Counted from the stretch's first letter, positions 26,523-38,979 are shown. The stretch: DNA of 64,000 nt from Gammaproteobacteria bacterium (GCA_965215055.1 OZ244046.1:1199202-1263201), one strand, 5' to 3'. Numbers and translations: made by a program. Notes: generated by a model not told the origin, from the sequence alone.

Positions 26523-28358
26523 ATGTGTGGAATTATTGGTGCTGTTGCAAATAGAGACGTGGCGCAAGTCTTGTTGGAAGGTCTGCATCGCCTGGAATAT
26601 CGAGGCTATGATTCCGCAGGCATGGTAGTGCTTGAGAACGGTGTGCTCAACCGCATTCGCAAAACGGGGAAGGTGCATGAATTAAGCAAGGCTCTGGACA
26701 AGTTTGCACTGGCGGGAGAACTGGGCATTGCCCATACTCGTTGGGCTACACATGGTGCACCGGCGGAAAATAATGCTCACCCGCATATTTGCAATAATCG
26801 GGTTGCCATTGTGCACAATGGCATTATCGAAAATTTTGAAACACTCAAAGCGCAACAAACTGCGCAAGGATTCAATTTTACCTCGGATACCGATACCGAA
26901 GTCATTGCCCACCAGATCGTCTTTTACCTGGACCAGGACAACGATTTTTTTACCGCCGTAAGTCGGGCAGCGGCAGACTTGAAAGGTGCTTACGCCCTGG
27001 GCGTGATCGATAAAAATAATCCTCAAAAATTGATTGCAGCACGCAATGGTAGCCCACTGGTTATCGGCAAAGGAGAAAACGAAAATTTTATCGCCTCCGA
27101 TGTACAGGCTTTAATAAGAGAGACACAAAAATTCATCTTTTTGGAAAACGGTGACATCGCGGAAATTACGAGCAACTCGATAAAAGTCGTCGATCAAACG
27201 AATGCACGTGTCAAGCGCAATGCAAAAACCAGCAAGCTATCCGCGAACGTTGGAGAAAAAGGCGATTACTCGCACTACATGCTTAAAGAGATTTATGAAC
27301 AGCCTCAGGCTATCGCTGATACGCTTGAAGGAAGGCTTGCCAACGGTCGGCTTGCACGGCAAATCCTCACGCCGCAGGCCGAGGAAACTTTACATCAAGC
27401 CAAGGCAATACAGATTGTTGCCTGCGGCACGAGCTATCATGCCGGGCTCGTCGCCAAGTTCTGGTTTGAAGAATTTGTGCGCCTTCCCTGTTCTGTAGAC
27501 GTTGCCAGTGAATTTCGTTATCGCAAGCACGTTATTCAACCGGACACGTTATTTATCGCTGTTTCCCAATCTGGTGAAACGGCAGACGTACTGGCCACGT
27601 TGCGACAGGCCAAACAAGAGGATTACATTGCTACGCTCGCTGTTTGCAACGTCCCGGAAAGCTCACTGGTGCGTGAATCGGATATAGTGTTGATGACTCA
27701 TGCCGGCCCCGAAATAGGAGTGGCTTCTACCAAAGCCTTTACCACACAACTGGTGGCGTTGCTGATGTTAGTGATTATCGCTAGCCGTCGTCACGAGACG
27801 CATGATGAACTTGAAAAAATGTTGGTCGAACAGCTTGTAACCTTGCCAACGCGAATTAATGAAGTGCTTGAACTCGATGCCAGAGTTAAAAAACTGGCCG
27901 AATACTATGGTGATAAAGAACATGCACTGTTCCTGGGTCGGGGTACTCATCATCCGGTGGCCAAAGAGGGCGCGCTGAAGCTGAAAGAGGTGTCCTACAT
28001 TCACGCCGAAGCTTACCCTGCCGGTGAATTAAAGCACGGCCCTATTGCCTTGATAGATACCAAGACACCTGTTGTTGCCGTGGCGCCCAATAACCAACTA
28101 TTAAAAAAACTGAAATCCAATATAGAAGAAGTACATGCACGTGGCGGTGTTCTACATGTATTTGCAGACGTCAATTCCAATCTTGCCGCCGCAGCCAAAA
28201 ATAACGTTACTGTTTTGGAAATTAATGCACCGGAAAATGCCGTCGCCCCGATCATTTTTAGCGTGCCTTTACAACTGCTTGCTTATCACGTCGCGGTTCT
28301 GAAAGGAGCCGACATTGATCAGCCCAGAAATTTAGCCAAATCTGTTACAGTGGAATAA
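26523..28358 (+). CDS. glmS: glutamine--fructose-6-phosphate aminotransferase GlmS
   Basis: 611 aa. N-terminal MCGIIGAV (Ntn Cys), two SIS domains, C-terminal ...SVTVE. Confidence 0.97.
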   Translation: MCGIIGAVANRDVAQVLLEGLHRLEYRGYDSAGMVVLENGVLNRIRKTGKVHELSKALDKFALAGELGIAHTRWATHGAPAENNAHPHICNNRVAIVHNGIIENFETLKAQQTAQGFNFTSDTDTEVIAHQIVFYLDQDNDFFTAVSRAAADLKGAYALGVIDKNNPQKLIAARNGSPLVIGKGENENFIASDVQALIRETQKFIFLENGDIAEITSNSIKVVDQTNARVKRNAKTSKLSANVGEKGDYSHYMLKEIYEQPQAIADTLEGRLANGRLARQILTPQAEETLHQAKAIQIVACGTSYHAGLVAKFWFEEFVRLPCSVDVASEFRYRKHVIQPDTLFIAVSQSGETADVLATLRQAKQEDYIATLAVCNVPESSLVRESDIVLMTHAGPEIGVASTKAFTTQLVALLMLVIIASRRHETHDELEKMLVEQLVTLPTRINEVLELDARVKKLAEYYGDKEHALFLGRGTHHPVAKEGALKLKEVSYIHAEAYPAGELKHGPIALIDTKTPVVAVAPNNQLLKKLKSNIEEVHARGGVLHVFADVNSNLAAAAKNNVTVLEINAPENAVAPIIFSVPLQLLAYHVAVLKGADIDQPRNLAKSVTVE

Positions 28359-28392
28359 TTTTGAATACCTATTAAACATACATAGACACTTC

Positions 28393-28418
28393 AACCGGCA
28401 GCTAGGTCATCACCGGTT
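28393..28418. terminator. possible bidirectional hairpin between convergent glmS and the DGQHR gene
   Basis: AACCGG (28393-28398) and CCGGTT (28413-28418) form a 6-bp stem around a 14-nt loop, followed by a pyrimidine-rich CTTTGCTACTTCTCT. Weak for an intrinsic terminator. Confidence 0.3.
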
Positions 28419-28450
28419 CTTTGCTACTTCTCTACCACAAAGTTTATGCT

Positions 28451-29584
28451 CTATATATCCAGTTCCGGTAATAACGATAGCAAATATTCTGCTAATCGGC
28501 GTTTTCCAGCAGCTGAACTGAAAGAGCCAGCGGCCCCTCTGTAACCTGTCCTCCAAAATTCTGCTCCCTGGACTGATACTCCCTCGCCATTCAACCCGTC
28601 TATATCATTCAAGGCTTTGTTTAGAAACGGTACATAGGACTCTGGTTCAAAGAGAGAGCCACCCTCAGAGCGGGCTAGGTCGAGCACAACTGGAAAAATT
28701 GAATGAAGCGCATCAACGCCAACTCCCTTTTGAATATTGTAATCTGATGGGAACTCAAAAGTTTTTGGCAGTACGCGACGAACGGCACGCCAATAGGCAT
28801 CTATTACCTGTGCCTGCCTTTCATGTGACCTGATATTTTGGAAAAGAGCAGTCTGTGTCAACAAGAGCTTGAGAGACCTAACGAACGATGCAGATGGTAC
28901 GGTCGTGTCACCCTTAGGCATGTTGGGCAATCGGATACGATCTTTCCAAGTACTCGAAGATTGCGACAAACGTTCGGTGAGAATTTGTGCATTGATTTCC
29001 CATGTCTTACCTCTCTCTTCAACCTCTTTCGCAAAAGAAGGATCGCTTGCAGCACGCGCTTTCATTAAATCTAAAGCAAGATCGGTTGGAACAGATTTTG
29101 CGTTCGAATTTACTACATGGAATTGCTTCATTTCACTACTTTCATCGGCACCGATCATGCACACGAAAGGAATTTTTATATTTTGAACATCTGCATCATA
29201 CTCATCTATCGCCTTTTGAAGAGCGAGAATCCGGTGTTGTCCATCAACCACCAGTAAGCAATGATCATTGGATGCCTTGTCTGGATTAAGGCAGAGGATA
29301 TAATTATCTGAACCATCCCTAGTGAGAACATCTTTCTCTTTTGCATTTCGCAAATTGAGCAGTACTGATGTTGGCAAATCCACAGTTTTCTTTGAGATTT
29401 CTCGTGCAAGTTGAGTGATTCGCGATTCTTTTGGATTACGTTGATACCCTGTTTCTTTGAGAACGTTTCGGTGGGGAACATGATGGTGTAATATCAATAC
29501 GCGAGCAGGCATTACACCAACAACGGTTATAATTTTATTTCGTAACGTTGGTCCCCGAACTACTCGCACTTTTGATGTACTCAT
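28451..29584 (-). CDS. DGQHR-domain protein (DndB-like, ParB/Srx-fold), solitary
   Basis: Contains the literal VVDGQHR motif together with upstream QR/NP-type motifs. ~377 aa from the ATG at 29584, which has an AAGGAAAAA RBS (the ORF track extends to 29623). By eye it is lower in GC than the flanking core genes. No dndCDE genes are nearby. Confidence 0.7.
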   Translation of the reverse strand: MSTSKVRVVRGPTLRNKIITVVGVMPARVLILHHHVPHRNVLKETGYQRNPKESRITQLAREISKKTVDLPTSVLLNLRNAKEKDVLTRDGSDNYILCLNPDKASNDHCLLVVDGQHRILALQKAIDEYDADVQNIKIPFVCMIGADESSEMKQFHVVNSNAKSVPTDLALDLMKARAASDPSFAKEVEERGKTWEINAQILTERLSQSSSTWKDRIRLPNMPKGDTTVPSASFVRSLKLLLTQTALFQNIRSHERQAQVIDAYWRAVRRVLPKTFEFPSDYNIQKGVGVDALHSIFPVVLDLARSEGGSLFEPESYVPFLNKALNDIDGLNGEGVSVQGAEFWRTGYRGAAGSFSSAAGKRRLAEYLLSLLPELDI

Positions 29585-29755
29585 AAATTTTTCCTTTGAA
29601 ATTAGGCTTAAAATCCTGCGCATTATACATAAAATAAAAAAGTGAGCAAGAATATAGAGCAGAAAAATTATGATTCCATCTTAGATCAAATTTAAAAATC
29701 TACTCTCCGGGTTTGGTTTATAATAGCGATAACACCTTCCGTCAGAGGGGTAATC

Positions 29756-30559
29756 GTGCTGGATTATCTGTATCACCATGAAATCTTGATTCGTTTGTCC
29801 AGCTTTGTCCTGGTATTTGCGATTTTCGCGATTTGGGAAGTGCTGAAACCGCGGCGCACTTGGTTGTACTCAAAAGGCGTGCGCTGGCTGAATAACCTTG
29901 GCATTGTCCTGTTGAATACTTTCACTATTCGGTTGGTAGTTCCTTTCACAGCTGCTGCGATGGCCGCAATCGCTCAGCAGCAAAATCTTGGACTGTTCAA
30001 CAGTGTACAAATGCCGGTATGGTTATCAATCATAATAGCCGTGCTGATAATGGACGCGGTACTTTATTTTCAACACCTGGCTTTCCATCATGTTCCTTTT
30101 CTGTGGCGACTGCACCGCATGCATCACGCCGACCTGGATTTTGACGTTACCACGGGAATACGATTTCACCCGTTTGAAATACTGCTGTCACTGATCGTAA
30201 AAATAGCCGTAGTACTTATGCTTGGTGCTCCGGTTATGGCAGTTGTTATTTTTGAAATCCTGTTGAATGCGACCTCCTTGTTCAATCACGCCAATATCCA
30301 TATTCCTGCAAGGGTGGATAAAGTATTACGCCGTTTTTTAGTAACTCCGGACATGCACCGAGTTCATCACTCGATTGTTATGAGCGAAACCAACAGCAAC
30401 TTCGGTTTCAACCTGCCGTGGTGGGATTACCTGTTCAAGACGTATCGCGATCAACCCGGTGCAGGTCATGTAAACATGACCATCGGCATTGAGCATTTCC
30501 GCACACCACGCGATCTTTGGCTGGATCTTTTACTGGCGCAGCCATTCAGAAACAAATAG
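29756..30559 (+). CDS. fatty acid hydroxylase / sterol desaturase family membrane protein
   Basis: 267 aa polytopic protein with His-box motifs (HHVPFLWRLHRMHHAD, HRVHH) characteristic of the FA hydroxylase superfamily. Confidence 0.75.
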   Translation: MLDYLYHHEILIRLSSFVLVFAIFAIWEVLKPRRTWLYSKGVRWLNNLGIVLLNTFTIRLVVPFTAAAMAAIAQQQNLGLFNSVQMPVWLSIIIAVLIMDAVLYFQHLAFHHVPFLWRLHRMHHADLDFDVTTGIRFHPFEILLSLIVKIAVVLMLGAPVMAVVIFEILLNATSLFNHANIHIPARVDKVLRRFLVTPDMHRVHHSIVMSETNSNFGFNLPWWDYLFKTYRDQPGAGHVNMTIGIEHFRTPRDLWLDLLLAQPFRNK

Positions 30560-30584
30560 TCGTTTCAATTAAAGCGCATAAGTT

Positions 30585-30660
<76 letters not shown>

Positions 30661-30769
30661 GCGCAAGTGGATGATAGCGCGTTGTAAAGAGGTTTGTATA
30701 TTTATGATCAGTGTCGCCGTGCACGGATGATAGCATCCATCTCGTCAATCAGATTATATGGGTGCCTTC

Positions 30770-31870
30770 TTATGGTAACTGATAGGCATACGGAGCTACT
30801 TGCGATGCGTGGATTGAATTGGTAACCAAGCCGACAAGCAGGTTGGCGGATGCAGTGCTCATCGCTATGCCGTTTCGATAGTGACCACTGTTGATGTAGA
30901 GGCCGGTTATTTCAGGGTGTTCGCATATATAGGGAACGCCACGCGAAGTACCAGGGCGAAGAGCTGCCCACTGTTGTTGCAGTCCAGCATTTTTCAGCCC
31001 GGGGCACATTTCCTGTGCCTTTGCATGAAGGTCGTCTGCTGCCTGTTGAGTAACGTTGCTTTCAAAACCGACGTGCTCCAGCGTGCTGCCACAAAGCACG
31101 AGGCCGTCTTTGCGCGAAATCAGATAAGTCTCCCCGTTTACCAGAATACGTGAGAACAGATGGGTCTGCGGTCTGTATAAAAGCATTTGCCCGCGCACGG
31201 GCACGATATCCGTTTTCTTGGCCGTAAGGGGCTGTAGAAGAGCTGTTGTCCAGGCACCTCCGCAAAGCACAACCTTATCTGCAAACAACTTCCCTTGTGG
31301 CGTAATCGCGCCCTGTACACGGCTCGATTGAAATAACAGCTTCTGCACCGCAAGATGCTCCAGAATTTTGACACCGCATCGTTGTAAAGACTTTTTAAGG
31401 GCTTGAATAAGGCGAGGGGACCGCACCTGTTTGACATTGGGTAAATAAAGAGCCTCGTGAAAATTGGGCAACAGATTTGGTTCAAGTTCGAATAGATCTC
31501 GTGAAGTTACGAATTCAATCGGCTCGTTGTTTTTACTTGCCCATCGTATTGCCTGGTTTTTCTCAGCCGTGTCCAGGACAATCATTCCGGAGCAAACAGC
31601 CTCGGGGTCTATTTTTGTTTCTTGTTTTAATTCCTCCGTAAGAGCAGGGAACAGGCGCTGGCTTTCAGTGATCAACATCCGTGCAGGTTGGCCCAGCCGC
31701 CACGGATGTAGCGATGCCAGGATTCCACCAGCCGCCCAAGTTGCCTTTCCGCCAAGATCGCCTTTTTCTATGATTGCAACTTGCAGGCCCGCAAAGTGTA
31801 AATTGCGTGCGGTGAGCATGCCCATGATTCCACCACCGATGACCAAGGTATCATAATAGTGCGTTTGCAT
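30770..31870 (-). CDS. thiO: FAD-dependent glycine oxidase ThiO
   Basis: 366 aa with a DTLVIGGGIMG FAD fold. The C-terminal block ALRPGTSRGVPYICEHPE...SGHYRNGI matches B. subtilis ThiO. Adjacent to thiS-thiG. Confidence 0.75.
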   Translation of the reverse strand: MQTHYYDTLVIGGGIMGMLTARNLHFAGLQVAIIEKGDLGGKATWAAGGILASLHPWRLGQPARMLITESQRLFPALTEELKQETKIDPEAVCSGMIVLDTAEKNQAIRWASKNNEPIEFVTSRDLFELEPNLLPNFHEALYLPNVKQVRSPRLIQALKKSLQRCGVKILEHLAVQKLLFQSSRVQGAITPQGKLFADKVVLCGGAWTTALLQPLTAKKTDIVPVRGQMLLYRPQTHLFSRILVNGETYLISRKDGLVLCGSTLEHVGFESNVTQQAADDLHAKAQEMCPGLKNAGLQQQWAALRPGTSRGVPYICEHPEITGLYINSGHYRNGIAMSTASANLLVGLVTNSIHASQVAPYAYQLP

Positions 31871-31900
31871 ATGGGGCAGTAGCGTTTATAGTGATAAAAC

Positions 31901-31974
31901 TGGAGCGGGTGATGGGAATCGAACCCACGTTCTCAGCTTGGGAAGCTGATGTTCTACCATTGAACTACACCCGC
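31901..31974 (-). tRNA. tRNA-Gly(CCC)
   Basis: Minus-strand 74 nt GCGGGTGTAGTTCAATGGTAGAACATCAGCTTCCCAAGCTGAGAACGTGGGTTCGATTCCCATCACCCGCTCCA. Anticodon loop TTCCCAA. Confidence 0.85.
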
Positions 31975-32053
31975 AATAAGTACCATTTTAGCGACTGTTG
32001 CAGCATTACCAATACGGTTTATTCATAGTAATGATATTTAATACGTACAAAAT

Positions 32054-32254
32054 ATGAAAATTACTGTAAATGGTGAGCAAACTGAGGTGGCGAACGGCAT
32101 GACCGCCTATCTGCTGCTTGAGGAACTCGGCCTGACGGAACAAAGGCTTGCGCTGGAGATCAACGAAGAAATAATACCGCGCAGTGTATTATCGCAACGT
32201 GTGCTACAAGCGGATGATCGTGTGGAAATCATTCATGCCGTCGGTGGAGGTTGA
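32054..32254 (+). CDS. thiS: sulfur carrier protein ThiS
   Basis: 66 aa ending in the diagnostic C-terminal GG (…IIHAVGGG). Ubiquitin-like size. Confidence 0.8.
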   Translation: MKITVNGEQTEVANGMTAYLLLEELGLTEQRLALEINEEIIPRSVLSQRVLQADDRVEIIHAVGGG

Positions 32255-32358
32255 GTTGGTTTTGAGGACAAAATAGGGGGAGTCATATTTCACGAAAGAT
32301 ATGAAAACGGTCGTGCAGTGTTGACTATATCAACACGATGTTGATTTAAGTAGTTGGA

Positions 32359-32459
32359 TTTTACTCTTTAGGGATAGTGTGGTCCGGCGGTTGCCAATAT
32401 AATTCTGCGGAAATGTTCAAGGTCTCTATCATGGCGGCATTGTCTGCTGTGACTTCAAC
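32359..32459. repeat. left copy of a ~100-bp imperfect direct repeat flanking the thiS/thiG insertion
   Basis: Aligns colinearly with 37288-37389 at roughly 80% identity. Shared blocks include TTTTACTCT, GGTTGCCAATA, ATTCTG and TTCAAGG. Weaker similarity extends ~30 bp further upstream (ATGTTG). Confidence 0.7.
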
Positions 32460-32555
32460 TTTTTTATGCTGCCCGCAGACGGCACCATTGACGATACTTC
32501 ATTCTGAGTGAAGCAGCCGAATTCGTAACAGTAGCAATCGGGCTGAGGTTATGTC

Positions 32556-33581
32556 ATGCTTTCTTTTAGTTGTACGACTCACCTGAAAAATTCTCTCAAC
32601 GCGAGAAATTACATGCGGGAACGCGCTTCAAGGAACCAGACGCTGTCATGCACAAGTGAGGATATCATGAGGCTGTCTCATGACATCATGCGGGTGGAAA
32701 CGACTGTTACCCAGAGAGATATCGAGGACCGAGTCATTGGTGGAGATATTTTCGATGTGGTGAGATATTTTCCCGCCTCATTTGTTGATCTCCTCATTTT
32801 AGACCCTCCGTATAATCTATCTAAGAATTTCAATGGGAATTTATTCAGAAAGAAAGAAAAACAAGAGTATGTTTTGTGGTTTGAGAGTGTTATTGAATTA
32901 CTAGACCCATTGATGAAGCCAACAGCGACAATATACGTATGCTCAGATTGGAAAACATCTACGCTTGTTTATCCGATATTGGAATCAAAATTTTCTGTGA
33001 GAAACAGAATTACATGGGAGCGAGAAAAAGGACGTGGTTCAAAGATAAACTGGAAGAATAATACGGAAGATGTCTGGTTTTGTACAAAGTCTGACCGCTA
33101 CTTTTTTGATGTTGATGCAGTAAAGCTAAAGAAGAAAGTTCTTGCACCCTATAGAATAAATGGAAAGCCGAAAGACTGGAGACAGGAGCAGAAGGGTAAT
33201 TATCGCTTGACACACCCATCCAATATTTGGACTGATTTGACGATCCCGTTCTGGTCGATGCCGGAAAACACCGATCACCCCACTCAAAAACCAGAGAAAT
33301 TGATTGCGAAACTTATTCTCGCGAGTTCGAAGAAAGGAGACTTTGTGTTTGATCCGTTCCTTGGTAGCGGCACGACTGCGGTTGTAGCAAAGAAATTGTC
33401 AAGGCGCTGGTGTGGGGTTGAGCTTAATTCTGAATACCTTTGCTGGGCACTAAAACGTGTCGTTGCCGTAACGAAAAACTCGACAATCCAGGGATATGAA
33501 AACGGTGTGTTTTGGGAGAGAAACTCACTCCCCAATCGAAATAAGGAAGCCTATAACTTTCAGGAAACCTTGTTCCCGTGA
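32556..33581 (+). CDS. type II DNA methyltransferase, beta-class (N6-adenine or N4-cytosine; DPPY motif)
   Basis: Motif IV ILDPPYNL lies N-terminal and motif I FDPFLGSGTTAVVA lies C-terminal, which is the beta-group order. AT-rich coding sequence. The true start may be one of several internal Met codons. Confidence 0.8.
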   Translation: MLSFSCTTHLKNSLNARNYMRERASRNQTLSCTSEDIMRLSHDIMRVETTVTQRDIEDRVIGGDIFDVVRYFPASFVDLLILDPPYNLSKNFNGNLFRKKEKQEYVLWFESVIELLDPLMKPTATIYVCSDWKTSTLVYPILESKFSVRNRITWEREKGRGSKINWKNNTEDVWFCTKSDRYFFDVDAVKLKKKVLAPYRINGKPKDWRQEQKGNYRLTHPSNIWTDLTIPFWSMPENTDHPTQKPEKLIAKLILASSKKGDFVFDPFLGSGTTAVVAKKLSRRWCGVELNSEYLCWALKRVVAVTKNSTIQGYENGVFWERNSLPNRNKEAYNFQETLFP

Positions 33582-34246
33582 GATCGGGTTTTTATTATAA
33601 AGGCTACTACAAAGCGATAGCTTCAAATATCAGAGAGTATATCAACTCGTTACAAGATTTCCTTTCGCCTGAAACGGCATGTAGTCCTAGAGCTGTTGGC
33701 GATGCACTTGAATCACTTGTGGCAGAAAAGTTTGATACCTTCCTTGGGGATTGGTGCAAAGAATACTCGAGAGATTTTGCCCGCCGCGCCATGGCTGACA
33801 TGGCATTTACTGATAAGGAAGGCATTTATTCCGTAATAGATGTCAAAACTCACAGAGAAGACACCAAATTCAACATGCCTAACCTTACTTCAGTAGAACG
33901 ATTGGCTCGGTTTTATGAGTCTGATGCCAATGTTTTCTCCCTTATCATAATTAAATATTCGATTGAAGGCACAAATATCGAAGTATCGGAGGTTTTATTT
34001 TCACCAATCGAATTTCTGGACTGGAGTTGCTTGACTGTAGGTGCGCTTGGCTGGGGCCAGATTCAGATCGCGAATTCCAATGATATCCGTATTATAGATA
34101 AATTCTCACGAAAGAAATGGATGTTACAGCTATGTGATGTGTTAATGGAATTTTATCCGAGAGAAATTGGCAAAATCCGGGACAGGATCGATCGCTTCAA
34201 CACGGTAAGGGAGTATTGGGAGTCAAAAGAAGACGTTTGGACTTGA
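33578..34246 (+). CDS. putative type II restriction endonuclease (PD-(D/E)XK-like)
   Basis: 222-aa ORF. Its GTG start overlaps the methyltransferase stop (GTGA). Candidate catalytic motif FTD...VIDVK. No family I can name with certainty. Assignment rests on linkage, size and motif. Confidence 0.5.
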   Translation: MRSGFYYKGYYKAIASNIREYINSLQDFLSPETACSPRAVGDALESLVAEKFDTFLGDWCKEYSRDFARRAMADMAFTDKEGIYSVIDVKTHREDTKFNMPNLTSVERLARFYESDANVFSLIIIKYSIEGTNIEVSEVLFSPIEFLDWSCLTVGALGWGQIQIANSNDIRIIDKFSRKKWMLQLCDVLMEFYPREIGKIRDRIDRFNTVREYWESKEDVWT

Positions 34247-34282
34247 TTAACGCAAATAATTGAGAGAGCCAACCTATAAACC

Positions 34283-35404
34283 ATGAACTCGGAACGCCAT
34301 ATGGATCGCCTGCCCCCTGAGTGGACGTGGTGGCAACGTGATCTCGTTATTTTAGGTGAGTTGCTGGTGTACGGTACTGGCATTGCTTTTGCAGCGATCT
34401 GCCTGAGCCTCCTATTTGAGAATCCACTACAATTAAAATGCGAATGTTGGTTGTATGTACTTGGAATCCTATTTCTAGTTGGGCTCTATATGGTTCGTCT
34501 CCTGCGGCATCCTTTTCGAGTACATGAAGAGAGGCTCGTTGATCGCACGGAAGTCGAAGCATTATTTAAGCAGGCATCTCCAGATGCCGGTAAAAATCTC
34601 CGTAAGCTTATTAAATGTCTCGAACACGAAGGTCCAAGCACATGGACGGAATATAGAATTCTACCCGTAGAGCAGGATGCATTGAAACGGCTTTCTGCCA
34701 AAGATTTGATTGCTAAAGCGCATGCGCGACTAGACGATCTCAAGGAATACGATGAAAAAAGAGGTGAGGAAGAGAAAGAGTACTTTAATAAGCGTGAAAA
34801 GCGATTACACAAGTCCATTAAGACGTTAAAAGAGGAGTTAAAAGAGACCAGTTCATCAGATACGGAGAAAGTTAAGCGTAGAAAAAAAGCAAAAAAAGCC
34901 TTGAGAGCAGACTTGGGAATGCTTCTTGAAACGCTCGCCGATTATGACAAGAACTGGGCAATTGGATCGGAAATATTGCGAGCATTATTGATAGTCATTT
35001 CATTCACTATACCCATTTTATTGGTTTTGGGAGTAGCTCCGGTTCTTATGCCACCAAGAGAAAGTCTTGGATTTGTCAATTGGGCACTTTTGGGGGTAGC
35101 GGGATCACTCACAGCAGTATTACGAAAGCTTTATTTGGGTAGTAAAGTGGAGGTTGGAGATACAGAAGGAAAAAACGAGTTATACCAAACTATCAAGGGT
35201 GCAGTTTTGGGTTTGGTCTCCGGGGTTCTAGTCTTTGCGATGCTCTCGGGTAATATTATATCGAAGGGAACCATAGTGCCTGATGTGGATAGCTGTGACT
35301 TAAAGCAGATTTATCTCTCTGTTTTCTGGGCTTTTATGGCTGGGTTCGCGTTTGAAAATTTCTTCGATAAAGTTCAACGAGAACAGATCGGAAAATACAA
35401 CTGA
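34283..35404 (+). CDS. hypothetical membrane protein with central coiled-coil/charged region
   Basis: 373 aa. Two N-terminal hydrophobic helices, then a ~130-aa highly charged K/E-rich segment (KEYDEKRGEEEKEYFNKREKRLHKSIKTLKEELKE...KVKRRKKAKKALRADL), then 3-4 C-terminal TM helices. No recognisable family. Confidence 0.5.
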   Translation: MNSERHMDRLPPEWTWWQRDLVILGELLVYGTGIAFAAICLSLLFENPLQLKCECWLYVLGILFLVGLYMVRLLRHPFRVHEERLVDRTEVEALFKQASPDAGKNLRKLIKCLEHEGPSTWTEYRILPVEQDALKRLSAKDLIAKAHARLDDLKEYDEKRGEEEKEYFNKREKRLHKSIKTLKEELKETSSSDTEKVKRRKKAKKALRADLGMLLETLADYDKNWAIGSEILRALLIVISFTIPILLVLGVAPVLMPPRESLGFVNWALLGVAGSLTAVLRKLYLGSKVEVGDTEGKNELYQTIKGAVLGLVSGVLVFAMLSGNIISKGTIVPDVDSCDLKQIYLSVFWAFMAGFAFENFFDKVQREQIGKYN

Positions 35405-35408
35405 TAAA

Positions 35409-35816
35409 ATGGTTGGAAAATCAGTCCATAAACATAGCCCGCATGCTAAAGTCTACGGCTTCGAGCTAATTATCGATTTGAAGAATTGTAGTCCATCTCT
35501 TTTCAATCGTAAATCTCTCGACAATTACTTTAGTCAACTGTGTGATCTTATTTCAATGAAGAAGGCAGAGGTGTATTTCTGGGACGATGTTGGAGTAGCA
35601 CCAGAGGAACAACAGACCGCCCCGCATACAAAGGGGACCTCGGCAGTCTGCTTTATTTTGACGAGTTCGATAGTAATCCATACGCTCGATGTTTTGAGAA
35701 CCGTGTATGTCAATATTTTTTCTTGTAAAGTGTTCGATCCTAATATTGCGGTGGAATTTACTAGAGATTGGTTCAGCGGTGAGGTCCAAAATTCCACGTT
35801 TATCGAACGGCATTAG
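35409..35816 (+). CDS. SpeH/AdoMetDC-fold (pyruvoyl-dependent decarboxylase-like) small protein
   Basis: ~135 aa from the ATG at 35409 (the ORF track starts at 35352 and overlaps the previous gene). Aligns with class-1 bacterial/archaeal S-adenosylmethionine decarboxylase proenzymes. HAKVYGFELIIDLKNC matches the GRHVIAELWDC-type N-terminus. The conserved His (IVIHTL) and Cys (IFSCKV) are present. The usual E-S-H processing site is replaced by T-S-S. Confidence 0.6.
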   Translation: MVGKSVHKHSPHAKVYGFELIIDLKNCSPSLFNRKSLDNYFSQLCDLISMKKAEVYFWDDVGVAPEEQQTAPHTKGTSAVCFILTSSIVIHTLDVLRTVYVNIFSCKVFDPNIAVEFTRDWFSGEVQNSTFIERH

Positions 35817-35830
35817 TGAGGGGGATCCTA

Positions 35831-37189
35831 ATGATAATTAGAGAAAAATCGATGACCATCCCAGTTCCTTCTGATCGTCACAATCTTATAGAACATGTCC
35901 GAGCGAGCGCCAATTTCCAACTGAAGGCAGATGAAATCCCAGTGCGCTATGCAGTGACGGAATCAAATGAGACTCAATATGTCTGTGAGATCGGTGTTGT
36001 TGCCGATGCCAATGCCGAGATAATCAGGAAAGTGCCAGATCTTTTCACATTCCGGGCTAGGCATTTGGCAACATCGGCCAGTTTTAATGCCGTGTTATTG
36101 GTGCCTACTGGAATCGGGTCGGATATTGGTGGTCACGCAGGAGATGCGACCGCGGTCGCCCATCTTGTTGCAGAGAGTTGCGACACGCTCGTCTTGCATC
36201 CGAACGTGGTGAACGCATCTGACATAAATGAGTTACCCAGTAACGCTTTATATGTAGAAGGGAGTATAGTTACACGGCTTCTGATGGGAACGATAGGCTT
36301 AGTTCCAGTTCGATCAAATCGGGTCTTAGTGATACTGGATGAACACATGGATAGACACTTCGTAGACATGGCTGTCAACTCGGTAAGCTCTGCCCGAGCT
36401 ACTTACGGTTTAGATTGCCCTGAGGTGGTCTGTCTAAATCCCTCTATTCGCATGAGCGCCGAATACTCAGAATCGGGATGTGCTGTGGGTCGAGTCGAGA
36501 ACATCGAGCATTGCCTTCAGGTTCTTAGTGACTTGAAGGAGCAATACGATGCGGCAGCGTTATCGTCCGTTATAAGGGTTCCTCATGAGTTTCATTTGGA
36601 CTATTTCCATCAGCAAGGAGAGATGGTTAATCCTTGGGGGGGTGTGGAAGCCATGCTGACACATACCTTGTCGTCTTTTCTAAACGTGCCGAGTGCACAT
36701 TCGCCCATGTTCGAGTCAAGGAAGATAGAAAATCTGGAGGCTGGTCGGGTTGAGCCTCGAATGGCGGCGGAAGCAGTATCGCTTACCTTTTTGCAGTGTA
36801 TCCTGAAGGGGTTACAAAAAAGCCCCAGGATAATCGAGGACGAGTCGCTATTTCATCGGTCCGATGTGTTTTCTGCTGAAGATGTGTCGTGTCTAATTGT
36901 TCCTGATGGCTGCCTCGGGTTACCCACGATGGCGGCCCTTGAGCAAGGCATTCACGTGATCGCCGTTCGTGAGAATCGAAACTTGATGAAAAACGATCTA
37001 GCGAGATTACCTTGGCGAAAGGGGCAGCTTATCGTAGTACAGAATTACCTGGAAGCCGTGGGTGTAATGAACGCGCTTAAGGCGGGAGTCACTTTGGAAT
37101 CTGTTCGCCGCCCAATTTTAGACACAAGGGTAACTTCGAAGTCGACCAGTTTTTTGAGTGACAGTGCCCGTACAGATAGTTGTTCATAG
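35831..37189 (+). CDS. hypothetical ~452-aa soluble protein
   Basis: ATG at 35831 with a GAGGGGG RBS (the ORF track starts at an overlapping GTG at 35816). Carries a glycine-rich block LLVPTGIGSDIGGHAGDATAVAHL. No family I can name. Confidence 0.5.
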   Translation: MIIREKSMTIPVPSDRHNLIEHVRASANFQLKADEIPVRYAVTESNETQYVCEIGVVADANAEIIRKVPDLFTFRARHLATSASFNAVLLVPTGIGSDIGGHAGDATAVAHLVAESCDTLVLHPNVVNASDINELPSNALYVEGSIVTRLLMGTIGLVPVRSNRVLVILDEHMDRHFVDMAVNSVSSARATYGLDCPEVVCLNPSIRMSAEYSESGCAVGRVENIEHCLQVLSDLKEQYDAAALSSVIRVPHEFHLDYFHQQGEMVNPWGGVEAMLTHTLSSFLNVPSAHSPMFESRKIENLEAGRVEPRMAAEAVSLTFLQCILKGLQKSPRIIEDESLFHRSDVFSAEDVSCLIVPDGCLGLPTMAALEQGIHVIAVRENRNLMKNDLARLPWRKGQLIVVQNYLEAVGVMNALKAGVTLESVRRPILDTRVTSKSTSFLSDSARTDSCS

Positions 37190-37287
37190 AAATTTCTGAC
37201 CAAAATTTGGCACTTGTTGAGTCCGAGCAGAAAGTGCTCCGAATACAACCCAAATCCAATGCCAAAATGTTGGTCACTGTGAGGGGC

Positions 37288-37389
37288 TTTTACTCTGTGA
37301 GAGTGGTGTGATCCGACGGTTGCCAATACGATTCTGAGGAGATATTCAAGGCCTCCAACACGGTGGTATCGCCCGCTTCAATTATTGAC
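37288..37389. repeat. right copy of the ~100-bp imperfect direct repeat, immediately upstream of thiG
   Basis: See the left copy at 32359-32459. Confidence 0.7.
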
Positions 37390-37458
37390 TTTGGCATTCG
37401 ACATGGAATCTCCCAGCCTTACAGGCAGTGTGTTGATTTCTGGTAAACTGTAGGGGTT

Positions 37459-38286
37459 ATGCCTCCTATACCAGTACCAGAGTTTTTGACCGATCAGGAT
37501 GCGCAGGCCCATGATGTTCTTACCATTGCCGGCAAGCACTATACTTCGCGTCTGTTGGTAGGAACTGGCAAATACAAGGGTTTACCGGAAACACGTGCGG
37601 CGATTGTAGCGAGTAATGCCTCGATCGTAACGGTGGCACTGCGCAGGACTAATATCGGGCAGGAAAAAGGGAAACCCAACCTGCTTGACTTTATCCCACC
37701 GTCCGAGTTTACGATTTTACCCAATACTGCCGGTTGTTATTCTGCCAAAGACGCGGTGCGTACCTGTCTTTTGGGGCGTGAGTTGCTGGACGGGCAGGCG
37801 CTGGTAAAGTTGGAAGTGCTTGGTGACGAGAAAACGTTGTATCCAAACATCGTGGAGACAATAGCCGCCACCAAGACGTTAATGAAAGAAGGCTTTGAAA
37901 TCATGGTGTATACCAATGATGATCCTGTTATCGCCAAGCAACTGGAGGAAATGGGATGTGTGGCCGTAATGCCTCTGGCGGCACCGATCGGTTCCGGTCT
38001 TGGGATTCGTAATCCGTACAATATTCTTACTATCGTTGAAAATGCCAAGGTGCCGGTTCTGGTTGACGCCGGTGTTGGCACGGCCTCCGATGCGTCGATA
38101 GCAATGGAATTGGGCTGTGACGGAGTGTTGATGAATACCGCTATTGCACAAGCAAAGAACCCCCTGATGATGGCCACTGCAATGAAAAATGCGGTCGTGG
38201 CGGGTCGACAGGCGTTTCTTGCTGGGCGCATGCCGAAACGCCGCTATGCGTCGGCTTCGTCGCCCGTTGAGCATACCTTTTATTAA
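37459..38286 (+). CDS. thiG: thiazole synthase ThiG
   Basis: 275-aa TIM-barrel ThiG (…RLLVGTGKY…). AGGGGT RBS upstream. Confidence 0.9.
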
Positions 38287-38307
38287 CGGCAGTAACGCAG
38301 GGCATAC

Positions 38308-38979
38308 TTGCAAAAACCTCATTCCGTTATTCGCAGTTTTGTTCGCCGCGAAAGACGATTTACAAAAGGTCAGCAGGCGGCATTAAAAAAATATTGGTAC
38401 ATCTACGGCATCGAGACCACGGACACGGTGCTTGACTTGCCGGACGTATTCGGCAATTCAATGCCGGTTATTCTCGACATAGGATTTGGCAATGGTGACG
38501 CATTGATATCGCTTGCGAGGCAGCATTCGCATTTGAATTTTCTGGGTGTCGAGGTGTATCGCCCAGGCATTGGATCTTTGTTGAGAAAGCTGGATGAATC
38601 CGGGCTTGAAAATGTACGCATTATCAACATGGACGTGGTCGACCTGCTGCGCGAACGTATCGCGGCAAAAAGCATTATCTCGACGTTGATCTGGTTTCCC
38701 GATCCATGGCCGAAGAAACGTCACCATAAAAGGCGCTTGATACAAACTGGGTTTGTACAACTCGTTGCCGAGAAACTCGTTGATGGTGGTGAACTATATA
38801 TTGTTACGGACTGGCAGCCCTATGCGATTCACGTGTGCGAAACGTTGAAGCAGTGTGAGCTTTTTCATGAAGTTGATACTTCCGAGGTCATTACAGATCG
38901 CCCGAAAACGAAATTTGAGCAGCGAGGTGAAAATTTAGGCCACCAGGTTTATGCCCGGATATATAAGAAAATGGGCTAG
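38308..38979 (+). CDS. trmB: tRNA (guanine46-N7)-methyltransferase TrmB
   Basis: 223 aa. IRSFVRRERRFTKGQQAALKKYW…LDIGFGNG matches the E. coli TrmB N-terminus and SAM motif. Confidence 0.85.
   Translation: MQKPHSVIRSFVRRERRFTKGQQAALKKYWYIYGIETTDTVLDLPDVFGNSMPVILDIGFGNGDALISLARQHSHLNFLGVEVYRPGIGSLLRKLDESGLENVRIINMDVVDLLRERIAAKSIISTLIWFPDPWPKKRHHKRRLIQTGFVQLVAEKLVDGGELYIVTDWQPYAIHVCETLKQCELFHEVDTSEVITDRPKTKFEQRGENLGHQVYARIYKKMG

Follow-up and report, generated by a model that had tools for sequence, protein, structure and literature searches.

A strain-variable islet with a probable restriction–modification pair and diverged direct repeats in the thiS–thiG spacer of a gammaproteobacterium

How did five genes come to lie between thiS and thiG, a usually tightly linked biosynthetic pair, and do the imperfect direct repeats that bracket them record the event? 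The question is raised by a 64,000-nucleotide stretch from a Gammaproteobacteria bacterium (GCA_965215055.1, OZ244046.1:1199202–1263201), referred to here as the window, in which the two genes, both identified by Pfam, are 5204 bp apart. An earlier note on this DNA had given the distance as 5.2 kb, in agreement with our measurement, and had ascribed it to a restriction–modification (R-M) unit that inserted with a long duplication of its target. The block is indeed an insertion into a normally adjacent pair, but the repeat, called T here (93 bp, with copies T-left and T-right), does not occur in the empty site of a conspecific strain, which contradicts duplication of the target. We conclude that the DNA from 32261 to ~37400 is probably a strain-variable accessory islet in the thiS–thiG spacer, made up of an R-M pair and a three-gene module, and that T is part of the islet.

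The normal arrangement is clear from 80 gammaproteobacterial loci retrieved with ThiG. In ~70 of these thiS lies directly upstream of thiG, and the spacer has a median length of ~30 bp and rarely exceeds 300 bp (loci with a measurable, estimated thiG start). Two relatives, L003 and L004, have the gene order of the window, thiO(−)–thiS–thiG–trmB–sulP(−), without the five genes. Because thiS and thiG are adjacent both in these syntenic relatives and in most other loci, the five-gene block is best described as an insertion.

The state of the site without the block can be read from the same species. Contigs were retrieved for the five members of the cluster that contains the window's ThiG at 90% identity. 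Strain L084 (ENA ERZ25070786) is 98.4–98.9% identical to the window over ~20 kb, on both sides of the islet, and has the order thiO(−), tRNA-Gly(−), thiS, a 171-bp spacer and thiG. Homology between the two continues up to 32260 and begins again at 37403 by blastn, or ~37400 by eye; the ~5.14 kb of the window between these points (32261 to ~37400) corresponds to 105–109 bp of the L084 spacer. T was not found in that spacer by blastn (word size 7), by Smith–Waterman alignment (p = 0.26 and 0.47) or with an nhmmer profile. The L084 spacer lacks even the 12-nt T core, and there is consequently no core common to attachment sites attL and attR and an empty attB. Since the empty site holds no copy, both T copies arrived inside the insert. 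The absence of T, together with the loss of native DNA from the occupied site, is the opposite of what a target duplication predicts. The alternative offered in the earlier note, that T is a recombinogenic intergenic element native to the site, is likewise unsupported, as T is absent from the native spacer and has no third copy in the sequence searched. The islet is thus absent from a conspecific strain, has replaced ~105 bp of native spacer and carries no recombinase.

A second form of the islet, variant B, is present in three further contigs (L081, L082 and L085; two ENA assemblies, ERZ21848999 for L081 and ERZ21849000 for L085, and NCBI GCA_964347745.1). The features of the locus are as follows, in window coordinates unless stated otherwise.

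30770–31870, minus strand: thiO, FAD-dependent glycine oxidase family, native left flank (Pfam DAO, E = 1e-62)
31901–31974, minus strand: native tRNA-Gly(CCC) (ARAGORN and Rfam)
32054–32254, plus strand: thiS, a diverged allele linked to the islet (Pfam ThiS, E = 2e-13)
32261–32355, no strand: left stub of the insert, specific to the window variant; homology to L084 stops at 32260 and homology to L081 at 32258
32356–32448, plus strand: T-left, the left 93-bp repeat copy (repeat search, blastn, Smith–Waterman)
32449–32555, plus strand: leader of the methylase gene, adjoining T-left
32556–33581, plus strand: N6A/N4C DNA methyltransferase, Type II, beta-class (Pfam N6_N4_Mtase, E = 9e-45; PADLOC MTase_II, E = 4e-60)
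33578–34246, plus strand: orf222, probable Type II restriction endonuclease (pairing with the methylase, weak PADLOC REase_II matches)
34283–35404, plus strand: orf373, predicted multi-pass membrane protein, module gene 1 (hydrophobic blocks in alignment)
35352–35816, plus strand: AdoMet_dc-fold protein, pyruvoyl decarboxylase family (Pfam AdoMet_dc, E = 2e-13)
35816–37189, plus strand: DUF3326 protein (Pfam DUF3326, E = 1.5e-94)
37190–37284, no strand: spacer from the DUF3326 gene to T-right, unrelated to the stretch left of T-left
37285–37377, plus strand: T-right, the right 93-bp repeat copy (repeat search, blastn)
37378–37399, no strand: right stub of the insert; the right junction is at 37399–37403
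37400–37458, plus strand: native thiG leader, conserved in all strains (L084 comparison; homology to L155 begins at 37413)
37459–38286, plus strand: thiG (Pfam ThiG, E = 4e-107)
L081 3558–4523, minus strand: orf321, 321 amino acids, in variant B only, between thiS and the methylase gene; the same gene is present in L082 and L085

Variant B shares its right junction with the window, its T-right is 100% identical and its interior ~99% identical. The left end is different. Here thiS is followed by 63 bp of L084-like native spacer (84% identical) and then by orf321 on the minus strand, and only the last 31 bp of T-left are retained (window 32418–32448). The 143 bp that run from this point to the methylase start (32418–32560) are 90% identical between the variants, compared with ~99% for the rest of the islet. 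Because variant B retains native spacer, the L084-type spacer is the ancestral one and the islet inserted into a spacer of this type. The orf321 product has no match in Pfam, NCBIfam, PADLOC or PHROGs, and by eye its gene seems more GC-rich than the R-M genes. An 18-mer that resembles the T core lies to the left of orf321 (p = 0.01–0.04 without correction for multiple testing), and this marginal resemblance hints that orf321 dropped into the left repeat.

Related lineages show yet other arrangements. In L155, from a sister lineage, the sequence is 89% identical to the window from 37413 on and unrelated upstream of thiG, which places its breakpoint within ~10 bp of the window's right junction. 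L004 has an open reading frame (ORF) of 173 amino acids in the spacer, L083 has a spacer of 45 bp and in L001 thiG is unlinked from thiS. Neither of the other cargoes at this spot, those of L155 and L004, includes T. The thiS–thiG spacer is therefore a recurrent variable site, for which this species and its nearest relatives show four or more different states.

We also note that the native spacer, in both L084 (9830–9905) and L081 (3412–3480), appears by eye to be open in frame straight after the thiS stop codon. The ORF would encode a hydrophobic peptide, ending in WFGLGLLALLFILEAIVSIWSWWIR in L084 and in WLDLGLLVLLSILAGYISYS in L081, despite 16% nucleotide divergence, and may be either a small ORF for a membrane peptide or a read-through extension. 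The thiS start itself varies among strains: the window has GTA...ATG with the start at 32054 (compared region 32040–32062), and L084 (9615–9640) and L081 (3195–3220) have GTG...ATA, implying a GTG start three codons upstream. Gene callers truncate thiS to 51 amino acids in the L084 and L081 contigs. A 27-bp indel separates the strains between tRNA-Gly and thiS. The tRNA-Gly gene is also present in L084 and L081, and in part in L083.

What, then, is T? The two copies are direct and gapless, match at 70 of 93 positions (75%) and are spaced 4929 bp from start to start, as found by repeat search, blastn and Smith–Waterman alignment. In the 64-kb window the blastn match has E = 3e-13 and there are exactly two copies. 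The repeat had been described as ~100 bp long and ~80% identical; its gapless alignment, the listed shared blocks and, within 3 bp, its coordinates are all borne out, whereas the length and identity were somewhat overstated. A weaker similarity said to continue ~30 bp further upstream was not recovered, and there is no extension of T past 93 bp on either side (local-alignment p = 0.72 and 0.79). Since the sequences just outside both copies are unrelated, T is sharp-edged. Both copies are internal to the islet, T-left by 95 bp and T-right by ~22 bp, and the 95-bp left stub has no similarity to any other fetched sequence. It contains a hairpin with a perfect 7-bp stem just upstream of T-left (GTGTTGACTATATCAACAC, 32318–32336), which a scan reports as terminator-like and which could end the thiS transcript.

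The divergence between the T copies is large. Their Kimura two-parameter distance is 0.32, as against 0.012–0.013 between strains, which indicates that the copies long predate the split of the two islet variants. Transitions outnumber transversions by 19 to 4; the corresponding ratio for the lineage is 8.5–9 between strains and 2–3 at depth (p = 0.26), and because the repeat fits this spectrum its divergence looks neutral. The longest perfect block is the 12-mer CGGTTGCCAATA, which is confined to the two T copies. Efficient RecA recombination needs a minimal length of homology, and with no identical run longer than 12 bp the copies are unlikely to drive efficient RecA-dependent recombination or deletion today.

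T shows no coding, RNA or hairpin signal. On the minus strand both copies are open and end in an in-register TAA, yet the mismatches are distributed 8/5/9 over the codon positions, the changes comprise 14 non-synonymous and 5 synonymous ones and a profile of the two peptides has no match among 1.84 billion representative proteins. All plus-strand frames contain stop codons. A gene remnant on this strand was considered on the basis of mismatches with a period of three at 32429–32441 and a likeness ('ES.V.RR.PI') to the DUF3326 C-terminus; it requires indels, has stops in both copies and was judged to be chance. On the plus strand RNAalifold proposes a hairpin of 23 pairs, none of them broken and three showing compensatory changes, but 216 of 1000 column shuffles fold equally well and the energy is within the shuffle range (z = −0.73). 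There is no Rfam match at E ≤ 1 in the repeat region and none at the gathering score in the window, thiamine pyrophosphate (TPP) riboswitch types included. An attC-like, integron-cassette reading was rejected because single-stranded DNA folds of both copies and both strands lie at z = 0.3–0.9 relative to shuffles. A promoter scan gave no site at threshold inside T, and a sigma-54-like GG-N10-GC pattern seen by eye in T-left is broken in T-right.

Nor was a relative of T encountered elsewhere. Exact-pattern scans with the T core gave zero matches in JGI metagenomes and IMG/VR, and an nhmmer profile detected no third copy in the conspecific contigs outside the islet or in 1.8 Mb of fetched loci. 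A marginal nhmmer match in L097/L098 (E = 0.2) falls inside a 136-amino-acid ORF, lacks support at the protein level and was judged to be chance. In plasmid and phage databases T was not found, and only the methylase gene gave weak matches. T is also absent beside homologous R-M pairs and homologous three-gene modules in the fetched loci, although similarity in non-coding DNA would hardly outlast such divergences in any case.

These observations are best accommodated by the following history. The most economical route of entry into the spacer would be illegitimate (non-homologous) recombination with deletion of part of the target, given that no target was duplicated, native DNA was lost and a mobility gene is lacking. 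No integrase or transposase gene, as had been stated previously, is found among the five insert genes or the neighbors seen (to the left, thiO, the two tRNA genes and FA_hydroxylase; to the right, ~10 kb). Movement from strain to strain may then have relied on homologous recombination within the core genes on either side. Between the window and L084 there are two differences in 29903–31902 and 48 in 31903–32262, the interval comprising the tRNA–thiS spacer and thiS. Divergence thus jumps just to the right of tRNA-Gly, which itself lies at no junction. On the other side, the thiG allele is common to both islet variants and L084 is the odd one out at 31 sites (37617–38430). Because the islet is tied to diverged thiS and thiG alleles, while DNA 0.4–2 kb further outward is nearly identical to L084, we infer import by homologous recombination. 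The T copies, in this history, would be drifting, non-functional relics of the assembly or capture of the block at an earlier location; they may, for example, have originated as a target duplication or terminal redundancy made elsewhere, with one copy possibly swapped later for a diverged allele.

Several points weigh against this account. With nothing homologous to T found anywhere, 'relic' is what is left by default and not something positively found. Both copies are very near the islet ends, which is unexpected for a random relic and hints that T once defined the ends of a mobile unit. The census of T covers 64 kb of the 1.68-Mb genome, together with the fetched loci, which leaves room for a dispersed family. 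At least one unobserved intermediate is needed to relate the islet variants A (window) and B, and the evidence for illegitimate entry is negative throughout.

How do the competing explanations compare with these data? The one put forward originally, that an R-M unit inserted here with a long target duplication and that the native spacer held one T copy, draws on a real resemblance to the insertions described by the Kobayashi group (Furuta et al. 2010, PMC2853133). As in those cases, the insert is shorter than 20 kb (5.14 kb), includes M and probable R genes without an integrase or transposase, has a lower GC content than its surroundings and is flanked by direct repeats that are longer than 30 bp and far longer than transposon target duplications; three screening criteria of that study are matched. 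The class requires, however, that the repeats align with the other genome, and non-aligning cases are classed separately (PMC2853133). It is at this defining test that the resemblance ends: the conspecific empty site has no T, the occupied site has lost ~105 bp of native DNA, the 63 bp kept by variant B show what the ancestral sequence was and the sister-lineage spacer of L083 measures only 45 bp. The T copies are moreover 75% identical, compared with 93–100% in the published cases (PMC2853133), and R-M accounts for only two of the five cargo genes. We consider a target duplication at this locus extremely improbable. It is less easily dismissed that a donor or an earlier locus gave rise to T, either as a target duplication or as terminal redundancy of a circular intermediate, and that the block was then transferred here together with its 95-bp and 22-bp stubs. 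This version, which allows one T copy to have been replaced later by a diverged allele through homologous recombination, would explain why T has sharp edges, no gaps and copies that enclose precisely the gene set, why short unique stubs lie outside each copy and why the divergence of T is far older than that of the islet variants. It is nevertheless only a possibility, and a doubtful one: neither a donor locus nor a single-copy T appeared in JGI metagenomes or IMG/VR, among plasmids and phages or in 1.8 Mb of related loci, two separate events are required and the second transfer must have cut by chance within 95 bp and 22 bp of the T copies.

The remaining alternatives assign T a role or a family of its own. 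Direct copies near both ends, and the different cargoes that occupy the same spacer across lineages, could mean that T is the att-like recognition or crossover site of a recombinase encoded elsewhere and that the islet is a cassette mobilized in trans. We find this very improbable, given that no recombinase was seen in the islet or neighboring genes, the empty site lacks the core down to the 12-mer, T has no inverted-repeat or hairpin architecture, variant B is otherwise intact without two thirds of T-left and the L155 and L004 cargoes have no T. It is also quite unlikely, in our view, that T marks the ends of a recombinase-less cassette, trans-mobilized or self-capturing, that shuttles the R-M pair and the module between genomes, the module being perhaps an undescribed phage-defense system, or one that modifies S-adenosylmethionine (SAM) or amines, as opposed to housekeeping metabolism. 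A dispersed family, of the repetitive extragenic palindromic (REP) or miniature inverted-repeat transposable element (MITE) kind, would account for a non-coding repeat of ~93 bp with moderately diverged copies, as is typical of old dispersed repeats, and the islet would then merely happen to sit between two members. Such a family is improbable in view of its having only two members in 64 kb, none outside the islet in four conspecific contigs (~20 kb of each), none in the sister-lineage loci and none in the native spacer, and T has no palindromic or terminal-inverted structure. Finally, each copy lies 82–108 bp upstream of a plus-strand gene start, and T-right is 100% conserved between the two islet variants; together with the RNAalifold hairpin, whose pairs are all preserved on the plus strand, this would suit a promoter, operator or leader RNA that was duplicated to drive or regulate the methylase operon and the displaced thiG–trmB genes. 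We attach a low probability to a cis-acting element of this sort as well. The shuffled columns fold as well as the real ones, T has no promoter-like site at the scan threshold and no Rfam family, variant B has the same methylase with most of T-left missing upstream of it and 25% unconstrained, transition-biased drift looks neutral.

With the islet in the thiS–thiG spacer favored over these alternatives, we turn to its contents. Five ORFs, all in the same orientation, occupy the interval between the repeats. The intervening genes had been called R-M genes, which applies to two of the five as predicted here, the methylase gene and orf222, and not to the other three. They had also been called conspicuously AT-rich. 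GC in the insert is indeed lower than in the rest of the window (44.2% versus 47.8%), but the difference is mild, with 12% of equal-sized windows equally low. The R-M genes are at 41.9% and the DUF3326 gene is core-like at 48.8%.

The methylase and orf222 are probably a Type II R-M pair, orf222 being the putative nuclease. The start of orf222 overlaps the methylase stop codon, and in more than 55 of 65 metagenome loci, all those of adequate length, a homologous methylase gene immediately precedes the homologue of orf222 (57–73% identity). An adjacent, co-inherited pair of this kind is thus conserved across diverse metagenomes. The orf222 protein belongs to no Pfam family. In its own family, 11 of 24 members have weak PADLOC matches to Type II endonucleases (REase_II), and the alignment has an invariant D...D-x-K pattern. 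A single-sequence AlphaFold2 (AF2) model of orf222 is poor, with a predicted local distance difference test (pLDDT) score of 41; sequence and profile searches revealed no relative in the PDB, and exact look-ups gave no match.

The other three genes form a unit that recurs elsewhere. The orf373, AdoMet_dc and DUF3326 genes are found together and in the same order on four unrelated contigs (60–79% amino-acid identity), at the following positions.

34283–37189 in the window
6381–9338 in L086 and L087
6402–9356 in L088
6357–9359 in L089

The neighbors of the module on these contigs include a helicase/AAA_23 cluster and a PIN toxin–antitoxin pair, a BrxC/PglY gene of the bacteriophage exclusion (BREX) type and a ResIII/methylase pair with a group II intron. 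Each of the five contexts seen places the module within a few kilobases of R-M, BREX-like, helicase/AAA or toxin–antitoxin genes. The methylase–orf222 pair, for its part, recurs without the three-gene module in more than 55 metagenome loci. Because the pair and the module each recur apart from the other, the insert is a composite of two independently distributed units.

The individual module proteins give some functional leads. The orf373 protein has no Pfam family and is rare, with only 22 homologues in a word-indexed search of 5.8 billion proteins; in alignment it has hydrophobic N- and C-terminal blocks and a charged, coiled-coil-like middle. The AdoMet_dc-like protein scores below the NCBIfam equivalog cut-off, and gene callers place its start ~36 nt later. 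At the position of the self-cleaving 'ESH' motif of class-1 AdoMetDC enzymes it has 'TSSIVIHT'. DUF3326 homologues at 72–79% identity are encoded on contigs of other phyla. The AF2 model of the DUF3326 protein is confident (pLDDT 85), but no PDB fold matches it at E ≤ 0.001 (the best has E = 1.3e-3 and a TM-score of ~0.15); PDB sequence searches with orf222, orf373 and DUF3326 gave no match.

A parallel exists in the biosynthesis of the polyamine pavettamine, where the DUF3326 protein PavB acts with a decarboxylase in condensing diamines (bioRxiv 10.64898/2026.06.12.731819). As in that system, the DUF3326 gene here adjoins a gene of decarboxylase type. The partner here is, however, a small AdoMetDC-fold protein and not a fusion of Rieske and pyridoxal-phosphate (PLP) decarboxylase domains, and a membrane protein takes the place of PavC, so that the likeness may serve as a functional lead only. 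The module may be metabolic cargo or, alternatively, have a role in defense.

Close DUF3326 homologues come from Poribacteria, Nitrospinota and 'AH-259' Acidobacteria metagenome-assembled genomes, and one ThiG relative is named Porisulfidus. These record names suggest a sponge-associated community with gene sharing across phyla. The source genome is apparently small (the contig with ThiG is 1.68 Mb), and those of its relatives are 1.8–2.1 Mb.

Variation in this region is not confined to the thiS–thiG spacer. A second variable locus lies directly downstream of glmS (window 28358–29702), where the window has a 390-amino-acid gene of the DndB family (DGQHR; ORF 28451–29623, minus strand; Pfam DndB, E = 3e-11) and L084 and L081 have ~320–390 bp instead, with an unrelated ORF of 102–106 amino acids. 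In the sister lineage (ThiG 85–86% identical), three extra genes of 591–621, 238–240 and 226 amino acids, without Pfam matches, lie between thiG and trmB (L001 10835–14000, L083 1142–4403).

Where does the islet belong among known systems? It is not a site-specific integrative element as far as its genes and ends are concerned: no tyrosine or serine recombinase gene lies in or beside it and there is no common att core. It is closer to the 'substitution' class of R-M polymorphisms (Figure 8 b2 of PMC2853133), in which the flanks align between strains and the R-M region and repeats have no counterpart in the other genome. Unlike that class, the native stretch replaced here is only ~105 bp, and under the length rule of PMC2853133 the case becomes 'indel, other'.

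The locus fits the well-known category of recombinase-less islets exchanged via flanking homology, and is in this sense an ordinary variable islet. Recombinase-less accessory or defense islets at conserved hot spots between core genes are a general concept. In common with them, a single core-gene junction here holds varied cargo (islet A, islet B, the L004 ORF, the L155 cargo or nothing), spread appears to go through homologous recombination of the flanking DNA, R-M genes are among the cargo and a second variable locus has a DndB-like gene. Unlike the usual hot spots, this one is the internal spacer of a biosynthetic pair, and the islet is very small with cargo that is partly metabolic-looking.

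Two implications follow for the interpretation of such loci. Long imperfect direct repeats around an R-M block can mimic a target duplication, and flanking repeats alone cannot establish the mechanism of insertion. Accessory DNA can also land repeatedly in the spacer inside the normally tight thiS–thiG pair of a small-genome gammaproteobacterium, with several spacer alleles coexisting and being exchanged by homologous recombination. The rare module that travels among unrelated bacteria beside defense genes is, given the link between DUF3326 and polyamines, a reasonable candidate for experiment.

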